DNA from: Escherichia coli | GTDB taxonomy: Bacteria > Pseudomonadota > Gammaproteobacteria > Enterobacterales > Enterobacteriaceae | Assembly (NCBI RefSeq): GCF_044324875.1 | Contig: NZ_CP172185.1 | DNA: 64,000 nucleotides | Reading direction: 5' to 3' (one strand) | In this document: positions 3,611 to 51,719 of the stretch, one piece after another | How positions within the stretch are numbered: the first letter of the stretch is position 1 | Layout: each line of letters begins with the position of its first letter | Position numbers and translations under genes: made by a program | The notes under the pieces: generated by a model | What the model saw: only the letters and a program-made list of their open reading frames with translations | The model's database searches: none | What the model was told of the DNA's origin: nothing

Positions 3611-4493
3611 GGTTAATCACATTTTGTTCGTCAATAAACATACAGCGATTTCTTCCGGTTTGCTTACCCTCATACATTGCCCGGTCCGCTCTTCCAATGA
3701 CCACATCCAGAGGTTCTTCAGGAAATGCGCGACTCACACCTGCAGTCACGGTAATGTTGATATGCCCTTCAGAATGTGTGATGGCATGGTTATCGACTAA
3801 CTGGCAAATTCTGATACCTGCACGACATGCTTCTTCATCATTAGCCGCTTTGACAATAATGATAAATTCTTCGCCACCGTAGCGATAAACCGTTTCGTAA
3901 TCGCGCGTCCAACTGGCTAAGTAAGTTGCCAGGGTGCGTAATACTACATCGCCGATTAAATGCCCGTAGGTATCATTAACCAATTTAAATCGGTCAATAT
4001 CCAACAACATTAAATAAAGATTCAGAGGCTCAGCGTTGCGTAACTGATGATCAAAGGATTCATCAAGAACCCGACGACCCGGCAATCCCGTCAAAACATC
4101 CATATTGCTACGGATCGTCAGCAAATAAATTTTGTAATCGGTTAATGCCGCAGTAAAAGAAAGCAACCCTTCCTGAAAGGCGTCGAAATGCGCGTCCTGC
4201 CAGTGATTTTCAACAATAGCCAACATTAATTCCCGACCACAGTTATGCATATGTTGATGGGCAGAATCCATTAGCCGAACGTAAGGTAATTCATCGTTAT
4301 CGAGTGGTCCCAGATGATCAATCCACCGACCAAACTGGCACAGTCCATAAGAATGGTTATCCGTTATTTCTGGCTTACTGGCATCTCTCGCGACCACGCT
4401 GTGAAACATACTCACCAGCCACTGGTAGTGGGCATCGATAGCCTTATTGAGATTTAACAAGATGGCATCAATTTCCGTTGTCTTCTTGATCAT
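3603..4493 (-). CDS. dgcZ: DgcZ (YdeH) zinc-regulated diguanylate cyclase, 296 aa
   Basis: Translation MIKKTTEIDAILLNLNKAIDAHYQWL... with GGEEF motif (RYGGEEFIII). Confidence 0.92.
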   Translation of the reverse strand: MIKKTTEIDAILLNLNKAIDAHYQWLVSMFHSVVARDASKPEITDNHSYGLCQFGRWIDHLGPLDNDELPYVRLMDSAHQHMHNCGRELMLAIVENHWQDAHFDAFQEGLLSFTAALTDYKIYLLTIRSNMDVLTGLPGRRVLDESFDHQLRNAEPLNLYLMLLDIDRFKLVNDTYGHLIGDVVLRTLATYLASWTRDYETVYRYGGEEFIIIVKAANDEEACRAGIRICQLVDNHAITHSEGHINITVTAGVSRAFPEEPLDVVIGRADRAMYEGKQTGRNRCMFIDEQNVINRV

Positions 4494-35103: not shown

Positions 35104-35240
35104 ATGGCAAAGCCGATCATCACGCTCAATGGCCTAAAAATCGTCATTATGTTGGGAATGCTGGTCATTATTCTCTGCGGTATCCGTTTTGCCGCCGAGA
35201 TCATCGTGCCGTTTATTCTCGCATTATTTATTGCTGTTAT
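35104..35240 (+). pseudogene. tqsA: tqsA (AI-2 exporter) 5' fragment, first ~45 codons, truncated by element insertion
   Basis: ATG at 35104 encodes [45 protein letters not shown], then the frame runs into AT-rich foreign sequence and stops within ~25 bp; the rest of the gene resumes at 50814. Confidence 0.88.
35232..35240. repeat. Left attachment-site core (attL), 9-bp TGCTGTTAT
   Basis: Same 9-mer recurs at 50813-50821, where the tqsA reading frame resumes. Confidence 0.7.
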
Positions 35241-35316
35241 ATATAACTTATTTCACTTAACACATTGATTTAATTAAATAATTTACACTACAAAAAGTGC
35301 CAAAAATCGCAAATTA

Positions 35317-35369
35317 ACTACACCATTAACTACACCGTTCGGCGCACTGTATGAAACAACGTGGAACAA
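35317..35369 (+). repeat. Left-arm repeat cluster: 2x ACTACACC (12-bp spacing) then GAAACAACGTGGAACAA
   Basis: ACTACACC at 35317-35324 and 35329-35336; 17-mer at 35353-35369 recurs inverted at 49334-49350. Confidence 0.6.
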
Positions 35370-35559
35370 ATAGGCACAAGAAATATAAAGGCGGGTAATT
35401 TTTAGGGGGCGTTAATGTCGATATGGGGATCCACATATCGAGATTGATACCTGGCTTTTTTTCCGGTTAACCTTTAATCAGGCTGGTGGGCTTTACCTGT
35501 TCTGTAGGAGTGGTCATTATGACCATTCAGCCAATGACCTTAATCAGAATTTTTCGCTA

Positions 35560-35590
35560 AAAAATGACGTTGGCCACGTCATCCGGAAAG
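35560..35590 (-). terminator. Probable terminator at the end of the packaging operon
   Basis: Palindrome atgacgttggccacgtcat followed by a T6 run on the minus strand. Confidence 0.45.
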
Positions 35591-35652
35591 CACAAAATCA
35601 CGTCGATTTTTAATGGATGGTTAAACCGTCTTTATCTCGATGTCCGTACGTA

Positions 35653-35943
35653 TTACGTACGCAGTCGTTCCGGCTTCTTCCAGTGGTACGTATTTTTCGC
35701 GCTCTCCCTCCGTTGTTGAGAACGGCGACGGTATGCCAGCAACTCAAGGACTCTTGTTCGTATGTTGCGCATATCCACGCCGTTAAGCTCAATACCATCA
35801 CGGCGCATCACCTCCGCAACAACACGCACATAATTTTCGGCGGTCACGCTGTCCGGCTGCGTGGCCTGTTCGTCATGCTGCTGGCTGATTCCGGTAACGC
35901 GGCGGATTAATCCCAGTAGTTCGGCTTCGCTCATTCTCGTCAT
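35653..35943 (-). CDS. Hypothetical protein (96 aa), start overlaps terL stop (ATGA)
   Basis: ORF start overlaps the terL stop; no recognisable motif. Confidence 0.4.
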   Translation of the reverse strand: MTRMSEAELLGLIRRVTGISQQHDEQATQPDSVTAENYVRVVAEVMRRDGIELNGVDMRNIRTRVLELLAYRRRSQQRRESAKNTYHWKKPERLRT

Positions 35944-37601
35944 ACCCCATCAAACGCCGCAAGCCGCTCTTTGTGGCTGTCGCTCATATCGAATGCAAAT
36001 TCCTCATGCTCTGCCTGGAATGTGCCAAACGCCATCAGCGCCGCAACGCTCGGGTCTATCTTGTTGGATGATTTTTTCTTGTTCGGCTTGATATTGGCGT
36101 TCGCGTCACTCTGCATCACAACATTACTCATTGACCAGGCCAGCACCGGATCACCACGATGCACAATCACCTTCCGGTTAACAAAAACTTCGAACGATTT
36201 CGCCGCCGGACTGAAACGAAGGTATGTTTGCGGGAACGGCTCCACCTCAAATCCCGCCCCCTGTAGCTGTGTTCTCAGGTGAGTGGCGTTCCATGTATCG
36301 AAGCCCACCAGCCTGATACTGAAATTCTCTGCATCCGCCATGATGTCATCACGGATACGGTCATAATCAATGCAGTCACCCGGTGTTGTGCGTATCCAGC
36401 CAGCCTTTACCCACTGGCGATAGATGGCGCGGTTTTTATTGGCGGGGTTCTGTAGCTGAAATTCCGGCAGATAGTGACGGGAAACCAGCATAATTTTTTT
36501 ACCGACCGGGAAGGCATAGCACACGCTGGAAATATCGCTGGTTGATGATAAGTCCAGCCCCGCGTAGCACTCCTGCCCGTATAAATCCGCCTCCGCGAAC
36601 GTTCCGGCGCACTCCGCCCATGCACCGTTACCCATCCACGGCGTAGCCCCCTGACACCAGATATTGAATCGCTTGGTGAGCATTTCCACCCACTGCGACG
36701 GAATACCCCGCGCTTTCTGGATGGTTGAGGCCAGTTTTTCACGATCGACGGAAACATCGATATTGGGATTCGCCTTTATCCACATCGCCGGATCGTCAAC
36801 CTCGCTTTCATCATCCAGCTCGTAAATCAGCACGAACATGGATTCGTTCACCTCTTCACCATCCAGTATCTGGCAGCAATAGTCATAGTGTTGTTTACAG
36901 GCTGAAACAACGTTGCTCCCCGATGTGGTGATGGCAAATAACAGCCCCTCCGGACGCGCCCCCATTCCCAGCTCAAGCGCGGAATAAACCCCGTTGTCAG
37001 GGTGCAGGTGATATTCATCCACAATGGCAAGACTCGGGTTTGTACCTTCAATGGTTGCCGCTTTTGCTGCCAGTGGCTTTAACAGGCTGTTGGTTTTCGC
37101 GTGTATCACCTTGTGTGCCTGAATATTTACCCGCTTTCGTAACGGTCGGGATAAAAGGCACATCTGACGCGCATCATCAAACACGATCCGCGCCTGATCA
37201 CGACTCACGGCGGCGGTGTAAATATCCTGCTGCCCGTTTTCCATAACCAGAAACCAGTTAGCCAGGATAGCGGCGACCGTGGATTTGGCATTTTTTCGCG
37301 GTACTTCAATGAATGCGCTGGTGTATTTGCGCCGTCCGGTGGCCTTAACCTTAAAGCCCAGGATGCACGCAAAGGCGAACTGCTGCCACGGCTCCAGCTC
37401 AATGGGGCTACCGCGCATTGCGCCTTTTACGTGCGGACACACCCTGGAAAAGGCAATAAACCGCTCCACGACCTCCGGATCGAACGTGTAAAGGGGGTTT
37501 TCAAGGTCAGAAAAATACCGTTTAACAGCCTGTTTCAGTCGTTTACAGGCCGTAATTTTGCCGTTTTTTACGCCTTCTGCGTACTCATGCCAGGCGGTCA
37601 A
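35940..37601 (-). CDS. terL: Terminase large subunit, 553 aa
   Basis: ATPase P-loop-like VPRKNAKST and Walker B-like LAIVDEYH, C-terminal nuclease-like region; overlaps terS 3' end. Confidence 0.85.
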   Translation of the reverse strand: MTAWHEYAEGVKNGKITACKRLKQAVKRYFSDLENPLYTFDPEVVERFIAFSRVCPHVKGAMRGSPIELEPWQQFAFACILGFKVKATGRRKYTSAFIEVPRKNAKSTVAAILANWFLVMENGQQDIYTAAVSRDQARIVFDDARQMCLLSRPLRKRVNIQAHKVIHAKTNSLLKPLAAKAATIEGTNPSLAIVDEYHLHPDNGVYSALELGMGARPEGLLFAITTSGSNVVSACKQHYDYCCQILDGEEVNESMFVLIYELDDESEVDDPAMWIKANPNIDVSVDREKLASTIQKARGIPSQWVEMLTKRFNIWCQGATPWMGNGAWAECAGTFAEADLYGQECYAGLDLSSTSDISSVCYAFPVGKKIMLVSRHYLPEFQLQNPANKNRAIYRQWVKAGWIRTTPGDCIDYDRIRDDIMADAENFSIRLVGFDTWNATHLRTQLQGAGFEVEPFPQTYLRFSPAAKSFEVFVNRKVIVHRGDPVLAWSMSNVVMQSDANANIKPNKKKSSNKIDPSVAALMAFGTFQAEHEEFAFDMSDSHKERLAAFDGV

Positions 37602-37941
37602 GCTCGTCCTCTTCCTCTGTTTCCGGTGGATTTCTGCGGCGGCTTACCGGGTCAAAACCCAGCAAAGAAGCCATTTTGATCATTATTCTTTCCGCGTCAG
37701 CCTTTGCGCTCAGGGCGGGGTTTCTGCTCTCGCTGCCCTGACTGTTAACAATGCTGAACCCGCGCGTGGCAAGGTCTTCGACGGCTTTGCGGTATATGGA
37801 GTAGTTAACGCAATACAGCTCCAGATTGCTCCAGTCGGCGGGAGTAAGGTCTTCCCGTCCGGAAAGCTGGCGCGATTTTTCCTTCCACTGCCTGACCGCG
37901 ATTTCATCCAGGTAAGCGGGGGCTTTTGGTGGTCTTGCCAT
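37585..37941 (-). CDS. terS: Terminase small subunit (P27-type), ~118 aa
   Basis: Translation MARPPKAPAYLDEIAVRQWKEKSRQL...; overlaps terL start by 17 nt. Confidence 0.7.
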   Translation of the reverse strand: MARPPKAPAYLDEIAVRQWKEKSRQLSGREDLTPADWSNLELYCVNYSIYRKAVEDLATRGFSIVNSQGSESRNPALSAKADAERIMIKMASLLGFDPVSRRRNPPETEEEDELDRLA

Positions 37942-38004
37942 GTTCTTTTTTCGCCCAATTATTTTCAAAAAAATTCCCGTGCACAAAAATTTGAGCAGGC
38001 GGTC

Positions 38005-38060
38005 GGTTCTGGGCGGGGTCGGGTTCGTCCTGAAAACTCCCCCCCACCCCGTCCGGCTGC
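38005..38060. other. Candidate cos/packaging-initiation region (GC-rich, lambda-cosN-like)
   Basis: gggcggggtcgggttcgtcc and ctcccccccaccccgtccggc between the HNH module and terS; resembles the lambda cohesive end GGGCGGCGACCT. Confidence 0.35.
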
Positions 38061-38064
38061 CTCA

Positions 38065-38247
38065 TCAGCGATTGCGGAAACATTCCATAACCTCGCGGTC
38101 ACGGTCGTTTAATCGCGTCGCTGTGATGCGTTCTGCGCGTCCTGATGCTTTATCTTTATGCCCTGTTTCCTGTGCCTTCCATGCGTCACGCTGCCTTATC
38201 AGTCCACGAATAAGGCTGTTTTGTTCCCGTTCATTCATCAGCGTCAT
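38065..38247 (-). CDS. Possible small hypothetical protein (60 aa) between HNH and terS
   Basis: Internal ATG of the 38065..38481 ORF, starting just before the HNH stop. Confidence 0.3.
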   Translation of the reverse strand: MTLMNEREQNSLIRGLIRQRDAWKAQETGHKDKASGRAERITATRLNDRDREVMECFRNR

Positions 38248-38671
38248 ACATCCAGTTATTGCGGTTGGCTGCCCGTTCTTCCTCCTCACGGAATCCGCCA
38301 ACTGCACGCTTGTTTTTTGTGGCCGGATCAAGCCATTTCGTTTTCTGGTTATGACACGCCTGACACAATGGCTGATGATTCCACTCAGGCCAGAAGAGAA
38401 CATCATTACCGCCATCGATGGGGATAATGTGATCCACCACCACGGCGGGCGTGTATATTCCTTTTTCCAGGCAATGCGCACATAACGGGTTTTTACTCAG
38501 GTACATAGCGCGGTATTTCTCCCACTGCCTCGTATACCCTCGCTCCCTGCTGCTGCCTCTCCGGCTGTCCTGCTGCTGGCGTGCGCTGCGTCTGTGCTCC
38601 TCACACTTGCCGGACTTCACGCGCCTGTTGCAGCCTGGTTGTGTGCATCGTCTCAATGGTTGCCACGGCAT
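38231..38671 (-). CDS. HNH endonuclease (terminase-associated), 146 aa
   Basis: Zn-finger/HNH motifs CTQPGCN...CEEH, CAHC, VDHIIPIDGGND, NHQPLCQACHNQK. Confidence 0.85.
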   Translation of the reverse strand: MPWQPLRRCTQPGCNRRVKSGKCEEHRRSARQQQDSRRGSSRERGYTRQWEKYRAMYLSKNPLCAHCLEKGIYTPAVVVDHIIPIDGGNDVLFWPEWNHQPLCQACHNQKTKWLDPATKNKRAVGGFREEEERAANRNNWMYDADE

Positions 38672-38967
38672 CAGTACACCCCCACATCACGATAAACCGA
38701 CCAGAGCGCGGAAATCGTCAGGGGAATTTCTTTTGTATCGGTATCGCCAAGCGTTGTCCGGTACTCGTACAGTTGCGAGATGTACATCAGGCAACCAATT
38801 TTTATTGCAGGGGTAAATTCCAGGCCGTCATCAAAACGCCTGCCAATATGCTTCTGGCATACCTCCAGCGCCGCGCTTATGTATGCCTGAATCAGTGTGT
38901 CTTCTGTGTTACCATCTATGCGGCAGTGAAGTTTGGCCTCTTCCAGGGTTATTTTTTCTGCTGTCAT
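38671..38967 (-). CDS. gp6-like head-tail connector protein, 98 aa
   Basis: N-terminal LEEAKLHCRID...DTLIQAYISAALE signature. Confidence 0.65.
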   Translation of the reverse strand: MTAEKITLEEAKLHCRIDGNTEDTLIQAYISAALEVCQKHIGRRFDDGLEFTPAIKIGCLMYISQLYEYRTTLGDTDTKEIPLTISALWSVYRDVGVY

Positions 38968-39302
38968 TTTTCTGTACCCACCTTTGCCAGAATTTCCAGC
39001 CGGGTTCTTTTCGCATCAGGTAAGGGGATCCCGATGATATTAAGCGTGCTCCCGGCAAAAGCGCCGGTAAGCACTTTCAGGCGACTGGCGGCGGATATGT
39101 CGCCACGATAGCGAACCCATACCCGAATCGTTGCAGGTGCGGTTTCTGCGCCTGCGGTCAGTAATTCCCGTCCGCTGATCCCCTTGACCTCTGCCCAGAT
39201 GGTTTCCCCTTCCGTCCATATCTGCTGGATCGCACCTGACGGCAGGCGCTGTGTGGTAAATGTCATAATCGTCACCCGGTCCCGCATCTTTCCGGCTATC
39301 AT
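38964..39302 (-). CDS. Head-tail joining / head closure protein, 112 aa
   Basis: Size, position next to portal, and the typical RDRVTI...WAEVKGISGRE pattern. Confidence 0.6.
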   Translation of the reverse strand: MIAGKMRDRVTIMTFTTQRLPSGAIQQIWTEGETIWAEVKGISGRELLTAGAETAPATIRVWVRYRGDISAASRLKVLTGAFAGSTLNIIGIPLPDAKRTRLEILAKVGTEK

Positions 39303-40516
39303 TCGTCACCGCCCTTACTGTTCTTGCTGATTGTCACTTCCTGCTTCCATGCCTGGCTGAACTCGTCGCCACCTTCACGCGGCGGCATTCCCTCACGCTC
39401 ACGGGCTTCGTTCGGATTGATGATCCCGTTCTTAATCCCTTTCTCATACGTGGCGTAACGTTCGGTAGGGGTGGCGCGTAATAAATCGGCTGAATCAAAC
39501 TCAACCAGATAACGGGTACCAGGTACGGGAGAAGCCACCAGCAAAGCAGCCTTGATTTGCTGTTCGAAGTTCGCCAGCCACGGGCGCATTGTCATGGTCA
39601 GAAACGCGCGGCTTGCCTCACTGAAATTGCTGTAGGTGCTGTTGCTGTATTCCTGCAAAAAAATCGGCGAGACGTTGAACATTCGGGCGATGTCTTCAAT
39701 GGTAAAGCGACGGGAGGCCAGCCATTCAGCATCCTGATTACTCATGCCCAGCTGCTGATAGCTCATACCCCCTTCAAGGATGGGCGTTTTTCCGGCGTTT
39801 CTGGCCCCTTTGTAGCGTTCCAGTGCGGCTAATGCCTGTTTGCCCTTCACGCCGTCCAGCCATTCGCCTGACGTGATAACCCCTGCCGCCATCATGCCAT
39901 CACGCATCACGCTCGCGCCGTGGCGTTGTTGGGCCAGCCCAAGCCCCAGCGATTCGCGGCAGATGGTTACAGGTGAGCGCCCCATAAAGCCGTCATCCGT
40001 GGAGTAACGAAGGTGGAGAACCTCCCACGGTAAATAGTTGCGGGTGTTTCCGGTGTAGGCGTCAGTGATGCAGTAGCGCCAGTTATGCTCACCTGTCTGC
40101 TCCACGTTCACCGACTGCGGCGGGTAAGGATGTAAAGCCACCGGAAAACCATCACGCCCCCACTGAATAACCGCATAAGCATTACCGTTTAACAGGCAGT
40201 GGCGGATCATCATTCGCTTAAACTGGTAGGGGGTTTGCCATGCGTTCGGGCGCTCGTTGAGGATGTGATCGACCGGATGAGAATCAAGCCACTCGCGGGC
40301 CTCCTTCCCCTTCTCATTGCGTACCAGGTACAGGTAACACGGCATGGTAGCCACCGCCTCAGAGATGACCGTCACGGCGTTCATGACGGCGGGCAGTGAT
40401 TCCGCTGTCCCCGATGATACGTACTCACCCGCCCCCGTGTTCGATGTGCCCGCCAGCGCCATAAATTCATCAAGCGTCATGCTGCGCTGCTCTTTTTTTC
40501 TTCTGAAAAGCCACAT
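39299..40516 (-). CDS. Portal protein (HK97-type), 405 aa
   Basis: Length and position between protease and connector genes; HK97-portal-like translation. Confidence 0.8.
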   Translation of the reverse strand: MWLFRRKKEQRSMTLDEFMALAGTSNTGAGEYVSSGTAESLPAVMNAVTVISEAVATMPCYLYLVRNEKGKEAREWLDSHPVDHILNERPNAWQTPYQFKRMMIRHCLLNGNAYAVIQWGRDGFPVALHPYPPQSVNVEQTGEHNWRYCITDAYTGNTRNYLPWEVLHLRYSTDDGFMGRSPVTICRESLGLGLAQQRHGASVMRDGMMAAGVITSGEWLDGVKGKQALAALERYKGARNAGKTPILEGGMSYQQLGMSNQDAEWLASRRFTIEDIARMFNVSPIFLQEYSNSTYSNFSEASRAFLTMTMRPWLANFEQQIKAALLVASPVPGTRYLVEFDSADLLRATPTERYATYEKGIKNGIINPNEAREREGMPPREGGDEFSQAWKQEVTISKNSKGGDE

Positions 40517-40517
40517 A

Positions 40518-41090
40518 TCACACCCCCGCTAAATCCACCCACCAGCGGCGATTATCCGCACGCGGCATTTTTTCGGGGTGCTGCTCATACAGGGAACGGC
40601 GGGCCAGCTCCACGCCAGAATCGGGGTAAGCCGGTACCGATGTAACGGTAATTTCGTACAGTTCCGCCACCAGCACGGTACGAACGCATGGATCTGTTGT
40701 GGTATCCCATACATCCTTACGGGAGCGAAAGCCAAAGCTCATGCCGGATATATCACCGCGTTTAACCAGTTCGATAACGTCGCGCCCTGTACTGGTATCC
40801 GGTGGGGTCAGTTCAAAGCGTAACCCTGTTTCGTCCTCTTCCAGTTTCAGCGTGCCGGAACGGGTGCGCCCCAGTAACATGCTGTGGTCATGCTCATACA
40901 GGCCGCGAACGTCATTACCCGCCGCAAGCCATTCAGTAAACGCCCCCCGCTGGAATTTTTCGTAAAACTCACCCCATAACAGTTCTGAAAGCTTATCCCA
41001 GCGAACAACGTAGCCCGTCAGCGTACCGGCTCCGCTCGTGGTGATTTCCGATGACCGGATTTCCATACTCTTCATAATTTTTTCACCCAT
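40518..41090 (-). CDS. Prohead protease (HK97 family), 190 aa
   Basis: Translation resembles HK97-type prohead protease; lies between capsid and portal. Confidence 0.75.
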   Translation of the reverse strand: MGEKIMKSMEIRSSEITTSGAGTLTGYVVRWDKLSELLWGEFYEKFQRGAFTEWLAAGNDVRGLYEHDHSMLLGRTRSGTLKLEEDETGLRFELTPPDTSTGRDVIELVKRGDISGMSFGFRSRKDVWDTTTDPCVRTVLVAELYEITVTSVPAYPDSGVELARRSLYEQHPEKMPRADNRRWWVDLAGV

Positions 41091-41129
41091 AAAACACTAA
41101 AGGGGCTTTTAAGCCCCTTCTGTATGCTG

Positions 41130-49033: not shown

Positions 49034-49316
49034 TATTGCCCCCTTTCGTTTCTTAAAGAGTTATTTCGTGTTCTATTGCGTTGGTATGTGTCTGATTGTG
49101 TCAGGGTGATTCAGAGTTGGCAAATGTTGGTGGCGGGTATTTTACAGAAACGGGGTAATTTTAATAAAAAACATTTTAATTCAGTATTATGCAAAGGCAT
49201 AAAATCTCGTTTTATGCCTTTTTTCTCACTATTTAAAGCGTTATTCGCTAATGTATAAAAAACCAGTTGAGCATTAAAAATCAGCAACTTATAAGTCTGT
49301 ATACTTTTTCGCCTCT

Positions 49317-49359
49317 TGTTCGTGGTTGTTCCACGTTGTTTCACATTGTTCGCCGTTGT
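49317..49359 (-). repeat. Phased GAACAA-type repeats between int and alpA, inverted relative to the other copies
   Basis: Minus strand reads CAACGGCGAACAATGTGAAACAACGTGGAACAACCACGAACAA; contains both 17-mers found at 35353-35369 and 42512-42528. Confidence 0.6.
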
Positions 49360-49407
49360 ATCTGTGTGCTTATCCAGTATGCGCATACTGAAAAAACACG
49401 AAAAAAA

Positions 49408-50637
49408 TTATTTTCTTCTGGCTACTGGTAGCGTGGTTACGTTTTCATGTGCTCCCGCCAGTATCTCCAACCGCTCCACCCACATATCCAGCGCATTGCG
49501 TTTCGCATCCAGATAACGGGAATGATTATAAACTCGCTGCATTCCTGGCATCTGGTGGCCTGTAAGCTGCTCCACGACATGCGGATCAACGCCTAAATCG
49601 TTCAGCATGGTTGTAAAGGTGCGCCGGATGTCATGCAGTGACCAGTGAGGGTGTTTAAGCCTCCTGTGCGCTAATCTTCCATACTGCGATACGCTGGCCT
49701 CCTGTTTCACTTCCCCCAGCAATAAGCCCGTGTGCCTGTTCTGCTCCACCAGCTGCGTGACGAACGGCAGTATCGCTTCCGGTATGGGCCGGAATATGGC
49801 TACCTTCGTTTTGCTGTGCTCCTTCGGAACGGTCCATAGCATTTCGGTAAAATCCCACTCCCCGATCTCCGATAGCCTCAGTTCTACTGTCCTGGCTCCG
49901 AAGACAATCAGGAGGCGGATTAGTGCGACGTAGTAAGGGGAAAATATTTTTTTATCCAGCGCCTGCAATAACTCGCCCAGTTCTTTGGTGCTTAAGACAC
50001 GTTCGCTTATATCCGGTTTTTTCCCAACGTCCGCCACGTTCAGATCGTCCAGAACGTTGCTGATTGCATAGCGCCGCCTACGGCAAAACTTAAGCGCCTG
50101 TTTGCACGCCTGTAGCACGAATCCGGCAGTAACAGGCGTTCGCTTTGCCACCTGGTCAAAACAGGCCAGCCAGTGCCGTAGCTCGCATTTATCCAGCGGC
50201 ATAGCACCAATGTGCTGTATTACGTGATTATTAACTCGCCTTTTCAGGGCGATATAATCCACGCGGTTTTCCTTTACGTAAGACTCAAGCCAGTAGGTGA
50301 GCGCATCGCCAACCGTTACCGGCTTTAACGCTTCCTGTACGGCGTAATTCATCTCATGGCGTGGATTTTTCCCCTCCGCCAGCCATGCGCGACACTGGGC
50401 GGCTTTTTCCCTGGCTGCTTTCAGGCTCAGATCAGGATAATTTCCCAGCTTAATACGTTCCGGTCGTGTCTCTCTTCCCGTTCCTGCCCTGTAAGTGAAA
50501 TACCAGGTTAATATCCCTGATGTTAAATATTTCACGCTCAGATTTCCGCCATCGCTATAAAACGTGTTTTTCTCCGCTGGCTTACCATGAAGTTTCCTTA
50601 GCAAGGTATCGCTCAGTTTGTTCATTGCTCTGCTCAC
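49408..50637 (-). CDS. int: Tyrosine integrase (P4-like family), ~405-409 aa
   Basis: C-terminal catalytic region HDIRRTF ... RVYNHSRY; adjacent to the att junction. Confidence 0.88.
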   Translation of the reverse strand: MSRAMNKLSDTLLRKLHGKPAEKNTFYSDGGNLSVKYLTSGILTWYFTYRAGTGRETRPERIKLGNYPDLSLKAAREKAAQCRAWLAEGKNPRHEMNYAVQEALKPVTVGDALTYWLESYVKENRVDYIALKRRVNNHVIQHIGAMPLDKCELRHWLACFDQVAKRTPVTAGFVLQACKQALKFCRRRRYAISNVLDDLNVADVGKKPDISERVLSTKELGELLQALDKKIFSPYYVALIRLLIVFGARTVELRLSEIGEWDFTEMLWTVPKEHSKTKVAIFRPIPEAILPFVTQLVEQNRHTGLLLGEVKQEASVSQYGRLAHRRLKHPHWSLHDIRRTFTTMLNDLGVDPHVVEQLTGHQMPGMQRVYNHSRYLDAKRNALDMWVERLEILAGAHENVTTLPVARRK

Positions 50638-50664
50638 GCTTTACCCCTTGTTTACGAAAAAGTG

Positions 50665-50728
50665 ACTACACCAGTGACTACACCGATCGTTGCACAAAGG
50701 GCTACAACGTGAAACAAGCTGGAACAAG
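50665..50728 (+). repeat. Right-arm repeat cluster: 2x ACTACACC (12-bp spacing) then GTGAAACAAGCTGGAACAAG
   Basis: ACTACACC at 50665-50672 and 50677-50684; GAAACAA/GGAACAA repeats at 50709-50728; same layout as the left arm. Confidence 0.6.
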
Positions 50729-50812
50729 AAAAATCACAAATTTGTTTATAATCAAAAACATAATGAACAAACTGAAACATTATGAAACGGCAAAAAACAC
50801 TAATTGATAAAA

Positions 50813-50821
50813 TGCTGTTAT
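50813..50821. repeat. Right attachment-site core (attR), 9-bp TGCTGTTAT
   Basis: Direct repeat of 35232-35240; tqsA frame resumes here. Confidence 0.7.
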
Positions 50822-51719
50822 TCTTAACCCGCTGGTGCAACACATGGTCCGCTGGCGTGTGCCGCGTGTACTGGCAGTGTCGATTTTGATGACCATCATC
50901 GTGATGGCGATGGTGTTGCTATTAGCTTATCTGGGTTCCGCGCTCAACGAGTTGACGCGGACGTTACCGCAATATCGCAACTCTATTATGACGCCGCTGC
51001 AAGCGATTGAACCGTTGTTGCAACGCGTAGGGATTGATGTCTCAGTTGACCAACTGGCGCATTACATTGATCCGAACGCGGCGATGACGTTGCTCACCAA
51101 CTTATTGACGCAGTTATCTAATGCCATGTCATCAATATTTTTATTGCTGCTGACGGTGCTGTTTATGCTGCTCGAAGTGCCACAATTGCCCGGAAAATTT
51201 CAGCAAATGATGGCGCGTCCGGTTGAAGGGATGGCGGCGATTCAGCGTGCGATTGACAGTGTTTCTCATTATCTGGTGCTGAAAACAGCCATCAGCATCA
51301 TCACCGGCCTGGTCGCCTGGGCGATGCTCGCCGCACTCGATGTTCGCTTCGCTTTTGTCTGGGGATTGCTGGCCTTTGCGCTTAATTACATCCCGAATAT
51401 TGGTTCAGTTCTCGCGGCAATCCCCCCTATCGCTCAGGTATTGGTGTTTAATGGCTTCTACGAAGCGTTGCTGGTGCTGGCGGGATATCTGCTGATTAAT
51501 CTGGTCTTCGGCAATATTCTGGAGCCACGCATCATGGGGCGTGGGCTGGGGCTTTCCACGTTGGTGGTATTTCTGTCGTTGATTTTTTGGGGATGGTTGT
51601 TAGGACCGGTGGGTATGCTGCTTTCCGTGCCGTTGACAATTATTGTCAAAATTGCGCTTGAACAAACAGCGGGAGGTCAAAGCATCGCCGTTCTGTTAAG
51701 CGATCTCAATAAAGAGTGA
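50814..51719 (+). pseudogene. tqsA: tqsA 3' fragment (codons ~44 to end); no in-frame ATG upstream of the junction
   Basis: Frame continues ...[22 protein letters not shown]... to stop at 51719; in-frame stop TAA at 50808-50810 inside the element; only internal GTG/ATG starts available. Confidence 0.85.

Follow-up and report, generated by a model that had tools for sequence, protein, structure and literature searches.

Paired boxes and 10-bp-phased repeats of a capsid-forming phage-inducible island as candidate binding sites for its integrase and for AlpA

Which proteins read the repeated sequences that mark both ends and two internal spacers of a mobile island of Escherichia coli? The question is raised by a 64,000-nucleotide stretch of contig NZ_CP172185.1 (assembly GCF_044324875.1), hereafter called the window, in which positions 35232-50821 are an EcCIEDL933-like capsid-forming phage-inducible chromosomal island (cf-PICI; PICI for the wider group) inserted in tqsA. 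Both arms of the island carry pairs of a short box, ACTACACC, together with arrays of units repeated every 10 bp, and such arrays recur between the integrase gene int and alpA and again upstream of the capsid operon (Table 1). We propose that these are two classes of sites for two proteins, with the box pairs read by the integrase (Int) and the phased units by AlpA, an assignment in which we place moderate confidence.

The signal of the phased units resides in their spacing. The lone heptamer GRAACAA is not enriched in the 64-kb window (30 occurrences versus 22 expected), whereas AACAAN5AACAA has 7 matches versus 0.36 expected and ACAAN6ACAAN6ACAA has 7 versus 0.01. Matches to the phased patterns are confined to 35353-79, 42504-28, 49316-59 (minus strand), and 50694-727, and the unit that they share is a 10-mer, C-N-N-(G/C)-(G/A)-A-A-C-A-A, in which ACAA is almost invariant. 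Because a position-weight matrix trained on these same sites makes an array scan circular, the chance estimates are taken from the plain patterns. A sequence-only reading of the window had placed phased repeats at both arms and in two internal regions, and the counts bear out all four locations. The limits it gave had to be redrawn: the left array has three units and runs to 35379, and the right array has four (50688-50727) plus a second block (50761-50800). Both exact 17-mers that it had reported exist, with none expected by chance. GAAACAACGTGGAACAA is common to 35353-69 (plus strand) and 49326-42 (minus strand), and GGAACAACCACGAACAA to 42512-28 (plus) and 49316-32 (minus); the second copies had been given as 49334 and 49317.

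The boxes are found in the arms of the island. Copies of ACTACACC at 35317, 35329, 50665, and 50677 form two pairs, one in each arm with its members 12 bp apart, just as that reading had described, and relative to the attachment core they start at -152/-140 and +81/+93. Five copies are present in 64 kb versus 0.93 expected, a number that 0 of 100 shuffles reach; the fifth, at 2384, is unrelated to the island. For comparison we used five annotated E. coli islands, EcCICFT073, and about 150 loci from IMG/VR (individual loci are cited by L numbers). Exact ACTACACC pairs occur in 56 loci, and only at positions matching the arms.

The sequence of the box changes along with the N-terminal domain of Int. 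The int product carries the Arm-DNA-bind_3 domain (Pfam PF13356, residues 4-91, E = 3.6e-17) in addition to the catalytic Phage_integrase domain (PF00589). Class A integrases, which are 84-100% identical to Int of the window and supply the reference N-domain, accompany two ACTACACC boxes, and class C (cspD site, about 76% identity) combines a nearly identical N-domain with the same two boxes. The N-domain differs in class D (67% identity), where the boxes are two copies of ACTGACCACACA, and in class E (42% identity), where they are two copies of TGCAATACACA (three in L147). In every Int class the boxes form pairs or triplets with a 12-bp period, in direct orientation in both arms. They do not track AlpA, given that the AlpA proteins of classes C and D (AlpA-C and AlpA-D) share the same predicted recognition region and are accompanied by different boxes.

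The series extends to P4, which like the island encodes a P4-family integrase with an arm-binding domain. In the P4 record, the feature “attP arm sequence repeat” consists of two tandem pairs with a 12-bp period and a single orientation that flank the core (4078-4097). Pair 1 (3942-3965), with the sequence (A/T)(G/T)ATGCCCCCAA, lies 16-39 bp upstream of int, and pair 2 lies at 4151-4174. The box itself differs, being TGCCCCC in P4 versus ACTACACC in the island, as does the N-domain. Because the boxes are restricted to the arms, co-vary with the Int N-domain, and match the annotated arm repeats of P4, we assign them to Int, for which they are probably the arm-type sites. By its layout, the pair of attachment arms is a predicted P4-type attP of an arm-binding tyrosine integrase.

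The sequence-only reading had tied its proposal to conservation of the repeats in related islands, and conserved they are. In a position-weight scan of roughly 125 related loci, strong arrays are restricted to four contexts. The int-proximal arm has four units (three in class C) that run opposite to int at a distance of 62 bp from its start (83 bp in class C). The int-alpA spacer holds five to seven units, 262-296 bp upstream of alpA and in its orientation. The spacer between the PerC gene and the capsid gene, a context limited to cf-PICIs, has three units 187-213 bp upstream of the capsid start, opposite to the capsid gene. In the far arm, three units outside the box pair are directed into the island. 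Array length varies by whole 10-bp units (one extra in L022; five and six units in the two main array types), and the arrays persist where their flanks diverge, always retaining the 10-bp phase. The phasing thus shows signs of being under selection. The same arrays are present in primase-type islands (L002, L005, and CFT073) and in RepA-helicase-type islands (the window, L001, and L004).

The two arms are asymmetric in position, since only in the int-proximal arm do units lie between the boxes and the core. The weaker second block of this arm has a core-proximal counterpart in Int classes C and D despite different surrounding sequence, and class E has weaker, A-rich units between its arm-type sites and the core. 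In the far arm of class E, boxes are present and the phased array is absent.

At the capsid operon, the array read on the capsid strand is TTTTGTAAATTAT-TTGTTCGTGG-TTGTTCCAGG-TTGTTC. In an alignment of 26 distinct cf-PICI sequences, no other part of the PerC-capsid spacer is as well conserved. Nineteen nucleotides past it, the hexamers TTTAC(C/A) and TAT(T/G)(C/T)T persist in two otherwise diverged island types and mark a predicted promoter of the capsid/packaging operon, which scores under the threshold of a consensus scan; like every promoter position given here, this one is placed by conservation. The array would lie roughly 60-90 bp upstream of the predicted start, the usual place for an upstream activator. 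The interval 42450-42602 had earlier been described as a promoter region, and this stands, with the conserved promoter pointing leftward at the capsid operon.

In the int-alpA spacer the conserved order is the array, 31 nt, the block (C/T)TGATTTT...ACTGNTTTTTTATACA..GCGAAT, a hairpin, a promoter-like site, and the ribosome-binding site. The distance of 31 nt from the array to the next block is the same in two array types whose intervening sequences differ. We found no sigma-70-like promoter adjoining this array, nor one for int.

The arrays need another binder, because the arm domain of Int is accounted for by the boxes. The sequence-only reading had proposed one set of sites for one protein and had named AlpA or the integrase as candidates. 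What holds of this is that the phased units are common to the arms and the internal regulatory regions. The boxes, however, are confined to the arms and co-vary with the Int N-domain. With the boxes matched to Int, the phased units would be left for AlpA or for a third factor, and we consider AlpA the most likely.

AlpA is encoded next to int and consists of 62 amino acids that form a winged helix-turn-helix (wHTH) domain only. It matches PF05930 (Pfam, E = 5.6e-18) and phrog_2790, annotated as “excisionase and transcriptional regulator.” Its AlphaFold model (predicted local distance difference test score, pLDDT, 87.6) is best matched by the GIsul2 excisionase (8c3t; template modeling score, TM, 0.80-0.86), with further structural matches to RdfS (8dgl), TorI (1z4h, TM 0.64), and BldC (6ama).

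Published work on EcCICFT073 bears directly on this candidate, given that this island shares its boxes and arm arrays with that of the window, carries six array units between int and alpA, and encodes a 95%-identical AlpA. AlpA supplied from pBAD is by itself able to activate a PalpA fusion, and alpA mutants fail to transfer (PMC6092414). Overexpression of AlpA leads to int-dependent excision and replication while Pint is not raised (PMC6092414). Excision without more int expression fits a directionality factor that acts on att DNA.

The sites with their phasing, conservation, and distribution, the co-variation of boxes and Int, and the protein families are observed here; in the scheme that they suggest, we infer the protein partner of each motif, where the promoters lie, and what the distal-arm array does. 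The Arm-DNA-bind_3 domain of Int would bind the box pairs and thereby assemble the intasome. We also propose that Int represses its own gene through the int-proximal pair, which is located 28-48 bp upstream of int. AlpA would bind head-to-tail on the phased units, with one protomer per helical turn. In the int-proximal arm it would serve as the recombination directionality factor (RDF), or excisionase, with two blocks that fill the space from the Int sites to the core. The int-alpA array, with its five to seven units, would give the positive autoregulation of alpA that has been shown for EcCICFT073. In cf-PICIs, the three-unit array upstream of a weak promoter that follows a terminator would place the capsid/packaging operon under direct AlpA control, and in the island of the window the same array may also control the divergent accessory open reading frame (ORF) at 42603-43076.

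Several observations weigh against this scheme. The unit consensus (CGAACAA-like) is unchanged in islands whose AlpA is only 53-68% identical (AlpA-C and AlpA-D), with a predicted recognition region of CRTTRYELEK versus SRSCRYRLEK in AlpA of the window, so either specificity has been retained or the binder would not be AlpA. Classes C and D have no long array upstream of alpA, only a conserved CGAAC pair, located about 130 bp upstream of alpA or directly before the ribosome-binding site. Excisionase sites are as a rule confined to one arm, and the array that classes A, C, and D carry outside the Int sites of the distal arm departs from this. Between the int-alpA array and the only good sigma-70-like promoter, which follows it downstream, are about 190 bp that include the hairpin. 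This array runs with its downstream gene, whereas the capsid-operon array runs against its own. In EcCICFT073, AlpA has no measurable effect on a Pint fusion (PMC6092414), although the arm arrays should fall in that region. Finally, the co-variation of boxes and Int is based on just four to five lineages. Among the IMG/VR loci we found no island that pairs AlpA-A with an unrelated integrase, as AlpA-A always occurs with an Int of 84-100% identity. A scan of species-representative genomes with the Int alignment returned one unrelated locus only, the peptide patterns being too specific.

Among the alternatives, we rank highest, while still thinking it improbable, the binding of the arrays by an external factor, such as a host response regulator of the OmpR/PhoB type or a helper-phage product that switches on alpA. 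Such a factor would suit a consensus that does not change with the AlpA allele or among Int classes A, C, and D, and the units appear to resemble GAAACA-type half-sites. Induction of alpA transcription by the helper phages lambda and phi80 (PMC6092414) likewise favors it. However, AlpA from pBAD suffices for both PalpA activation and excision in a non-lysogen (PMC6092414), and the 48 kb of host DNA in the window contain no array. Moreover, the position of the int-proximal array matches the KplE1 RDF sites and the P4 layout, and an external factor would not account for units filling the interval from the Int sites to the core. In its broadest form, the idea makes the arrays the landing platform of a helper-phage or host factor that switches on Gram-negative PICIs. 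We doubt this as well, but if true it would explain the invariant consensus and would provide a defined DNA bait for the inducer. In a milder version AlpA stays the binder, and the arrays would define its complete regulon, a single repeat code through which one protein of 62 amino acids controls its own induction and the capsid operon as well as excision.

Another possibility, which we also judge unlikely, is that the assignment is reversed, such that the GAACAA units, including those of the two internal regions, are the Int arm-type sites and the ACTACACC boxes bind AlpA or another protein. Arrays in both arms are typical of arm-type sites, they stay constant across AlpA alleles A, C, and D while the core LTWYF.YR of the Int N-domain is conserved, and AlpA has no effect on Pint. 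Yet it is the boxes rather than the arrays that change with the Int N-domain, and the boxes do not follow AlpA; the annotated arm repeats of P4 are 12-bp-period pairs placed like the boxes, and the far arm of class E, with boxes only, would be devoid of Int arm sites. There is likewise no known reason for an integrase to bind upstream of a capsid operon, and plasmid-borne AlpA activates PalpA (PMC6092414, where the Int status of the host strain is not stated). We give still less weight to the view that only the arm copies matter and that the internal arrays are functionless remnants of recombination or duplication of an arm. The internal arrays are kept in many islands with diverged flanks, where the sequence and number of units vary at a constant 10-bp phase, and their distances are fixed (187-213 bp from the capsid-operon array to the capsid start, and 31 nt from the int-alpA array to the next block), despite the exact 17-mers common to arm and internal sites and the paralogy of the arms over ~65 bp. 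Least probable of all is that the arrays are replication-origin iterons bound by the RepA helicase or a primase. Direct repeats with one-turn spacing and variable copy number would be expected of iterons, but the replication gene (44873-46279) has none of the four sites next to it, two of them are inside attP, and the arrays are the same in islands with a primase and in those with a RepA helicase.

The preferred assignment, of boxes to Int and phased units to AlpA, has precedents in several known systems. P4 has three 10-bp-phased units (CGGACAA, CGGAAGA, and AGGACGA; 3983-4009) between its int-proximal pair and the core, and its Vis protein is a small member of the AlpA family that is annotated as “excisionase and transcriptional regulator.” Vis has a dual role in excision and promoter control. 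PICIs go beyond P4 in having a second core-proximal block, a distal-arm array, and long arrays upstream of alpA and of the capsid operon, an operon that P4 lacks. Vis lowers Int via RNA binding (PMC2951348), and PICIs and P4 are described as otherwise unrelated in gene content (Fillol-Salom 2018).

KplE1/HK620 resembles the island in that int is transcribed from within an att arm, where arm-type and RDF sites overlap Pint. The RDF of KplE1, the small winged-helix protein TorI, binds cooperatively at five sites that form two blocks in the int-proximal arm and have the cores GTTCG, GATCG, and GTCCG, complementary to CGAAC (PMC2951348, PMC3509656), and the arrangement at 50688-50800 of the island is the same. 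The systems differ in that TorI sites are described in attL only (PMC2951348, PMC3509656), whereas the island has arrays in both arms. Furthermore, TorI represses PintS about five-fold, while PICI AlpA leaves Pint unchanged. The second job of TorI is inhibition of TorR by protein-protein contact, in contrast to the proposed promoter activation by AlpA through the same DNA repeats.

Three TTAAAG repeats with a 10-bp period lie upstream of vis in P4 (9176-9205; “ori type 2 repeat” in the record), and we take these to be Cox boxes. We know of no Cox arrays in both arms. P2 Cox, a single small protein, combines excision at attP with promoter regulation through phased direct repeats spaced at about one per helical turn, repressing P2 Pc and activating P4 PLL (PMC3936717). 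Cox and AlpA differ in protein family and box sequence, and Cox mainly represses a promoter of its own phage whereas AlpA activates its own. RdfS of ICEMlSym R7A forms head-to-tail oligomers and binds attP and its own promoter, and BldC covers one DNA turn per subunit, on which RdfS has been modeled likewise (PMC11963761). RdfS has no recognizable consensus motif, in contrast to the nearly invariant ACAA core of the island units, and it represses its own promoter and stimulates intS, while AlpA activates its own promoter. The closest relatives, EcCICFT073 and EcCIEDL933, share with the island the Int/AlpA module, boxes, arrays, and cf-PICI gene order, and their AlpA is the published master activator. 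The island of the window differs from these prototypes in its location in tqsA, rather than between phoQ and roxA, and in its extra plus-strand ORF.

An antiterminator model after AlpA of Pseudomonas aeruginosa was rejected. The Pseudomonas protein is a multi-helix protein of at least 142 residues; its N-terminal segment forms a ring within the channel through which RNA exits, and its DNA target between -35 and -10 is one element of 6 bp (PMC9371919). PICI AlpA, in contrast, has 62 amino acids with a wHTH only, and its proposed sites are arrays of several units that precede promoters.

PICIs and cf-PICIs, which are widespread as satellites, mobilize genes for virulence and defense, and in Gram-negative hosts their cycle depends on AlpA. 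In the PICI literature, of which our coverage is incomplete, we found no description of an AlpA operator, of Int arm sites, or of packaging-operon control. The map given here supplies four defined DNA targets and predicts that AlpA turns on the capsid/packaging operon directly, that it acts as excisionase on the int-proximal arm, and that Int represses itself. The new element would be that excisionase-type units recur as long arrays at alpA and, in cf-PICIs, before the capsid operon. Direct control by AlpA of three steps of the satellite cycle is thereby predicted, which extends the logic of P4, KplE1, and P2 and introduces no new principle. The signature of a 12-bp box pair with 10-bp-phased units could also be used to find att sites of P4-family integrases.

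Table 1. Coordinates of the sites and genes discussed for the island of the window
Feature	Position	Strand	Remarks
attL core TGCTGTTAT, 9 bp	35232-35240		inside interrupted tqsA; junction contig L012 joins right arm to left arm at the core
Distal-arm ACTACACC box pair	35317-35336	+	+81 to +100 from core; layout as P4 arm repeats 4151-4174; proposed Int arm-type sites
Distal-arm array, 3 units TATGAAACAA, CGTGGAACAA, ATAGGCACAA	35350-35379	+	kept in Int classes A, C, and D; absent in E
Structured capsid leader	42285-42450	-	between predicted promoter and capsid ATG; minimum free energy -65.3 kcal/mol, z = -5.9
Predicted capsid/packaging-operon promoter	42456-42483	-	-35 TTTACT 42478-83, 16-nt spacer, -10 TATTCT 42456-61
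Capsid-operon array, 3 units, then ATAATTTACAAAA on + strand	42499-42541	-	ends 19 nt upstream of predicted -35, ~209 bp upstream of capsid ATG
Rightward promoter-like site TTTACA-17-TAAACT for ORF 42603-43076	42533-42561	+	-35 within conserved A/T block beside array
RepA-type helicase gene	44873-46279	-	
alpA	48845-49033	-	62-aa winged-helix protein
alpA-proximal promoter-like site TTGCCA-17-CACAAT, TG before -10	49095-49123	-	17-nt spacing kept in 10-bp-deletion variants
Conserved hairpin GGCATAAAA-CGAGA-TTTTATGCC	49196-49218	-	between array and alpA; one compensatory change in L123 (A-T to G-C)
int-alpA array, 5 strong units ACAGATACAA, CGGCGAACAA, TGTGAAACAA, CGTGGAACAA, CCACGAACAA	49316-49365	-	alpA orientation; 283 bp upstream of alpA start
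int	49408-50625	-	P4-type tyrosine integrase; alternative GTG start 50637
Int-proximal ACTACACC box pair	50665-50684	+	-152 to -133 from core, 28-48 bp upstream of int start; proposed Int arm-type sites
Int-proximal array block 1, 4 units CGTTGCACAA, AGGGCTACAA, CGTGAAACAA, GCTGGAACAA	50688-50727	+	between boxes and core
Int-proximal array block 2, weaker units GAACAA, GAAACA, GAAACG, AAAACA	50761-50800	+	exact 10-bp spacing; ends 12 bp before core
attR core TGCTGTTAT, 9 bp	50813-50821		

Counted from one core to the other, the island has 15,581 bp. In most E. coli genomes only its two flanks find a match, in the form of an intact tqsA, and in two metagenomic contigs (L012 and L071) the right arm is fused to the left arm across the core, so that these represent attP as excised or in tandem. 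The minus strand carries all core genes: int, alpA, Icd-like genes, the RepA-type helicase gene, SSB, PerC, the capsid/packaging module, and an ORF of 96 amino acids. The packaging module runs in the order capsid, protease, portal, head closure, connector, HNH, TerS, and TerL (35940-37601). Genes were assigned from ORFs, from PHROGs and NCBIfam matches, and from the annotation of the 96.5%-identical island L001. With ~15 kb, flanking att sites, int, alpA, replication genes, and a full capsid-packaging module, and with no tail or lysis genes, the element has the features by which cf-PICIs are defined (prototype EcCIEDL933; 10.1101/2022.09.08.507074).

The insertion cuts the autoinducer-2 (AI-2) transporter gene tqsA near its 5′ end (35104-35268 / 50835-51719), with an ORF restarting at a GTG at 50835, and probably inactivates the host gene. 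The chromosomal site, either tqsA or the phoQ-roxA spacer, differs among islands whose integrases are 90-97% identical and whose arms are nearly the same. Between such islands (50740-50821 of the window versus 16765-16900 of L001), only the last ~10-25 bp beside the core differ, GATAAAATGCTGTTAT versus GATAAAATATGTCCATACTT, and this looks like a recent switch of core specificity.

A terminator hairpin of varying sequence is present in the PerC-capsid spacers of all aligned islands but those of the window and L001, with L097 as a possible further exception. The plus-strand ORF 42603-43076 (157 amino acids) takes the place of the terminator in the window and L001, between PerC and the capsid-operon array; the ORF and its -10 element are found in these two islands only. 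Searches of PHROGs, NCBIfam, and PADLOC returned no match for this ORF, which may be accessory cargo. An adjacent minus-strand ORF of 95 amino acids (43112-43399; phrog_1957, unknown function) appears to be part of the same insertion.

Most cf-PICIs in the alignment keep the structured leader that precedes the capsid gene. Its last element, immediately next to the capsid ATG, is the hairpin GUCCUGG...CCAGGAC with U8 after it, a hairpin that a simple terminator scan did not flag. The leader may serve in attenuation, as a target for antitermination, or as a signal for packaging.

Two palindromic sequences lie between an array and a neighboring gene. A perfect palindrome, CAGTATGCGCATACTG, at 49375-49390 is located between the int stop codon and the first unit of the int-alpA array; it is kept in class A islands and is absent from the EcCICFT073-type spacer. 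The palindrome CGATATGGGGATCCACATATCG at 35419-35440, between the left-arm array and the last gene, is kept in L003 and EcCICFT073 and could be a terminator or a packaging (cos) element. The conserved 96-amino-acid end gene (35653-35943) has no match in Pfam, PADLOC, or NCBIfam that points to DNA binding, and its PHROGs matches are to families of unknown function only.

Phased repeats of another kind occur in class C islands (L003, 14850-14880 on the minus strand; L057-L080), where three AATATC units with 10-bp phasing lie just downstream of int. In some islands with the same AlpA, AAGTTCG-type repeats replace them. We rejected the AATATC repeats as candidate AlpA-C sites because they vary among islands with identical AlpA. 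Elsewhere in the collection, L129/L140 (1-10207) carries two PICI-type islands in tandem on one contig, a partial class D island followed by a class E island, and in the latter alpA overlaps the end of int.

Downstream of alpA, the minus strand encodes a C4 antisense RNA at 47472-47559 (RF01695, 72 bits, E = 1e-12) and, at 47627-47676, its a1/b1 target element (RF03163, slightly under the gathering score). The two are located among two Icd-like ORFs, 47247-47831 and 47707-48792, and by these matches the region is a predicted P1/P7-type c4-icd immunity module within the PICI early operon. Only the final ~70 residues of the product of ORF 47707-48792 (minus strand, 361 amino acids) match Icd-like or repressor families. 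This ORF is missing in L001 to L005, which have remnants of HicB, YlcI/YnfO, or BRO-N in its place, and the position directly downstream of alpA looks like a variable slot.

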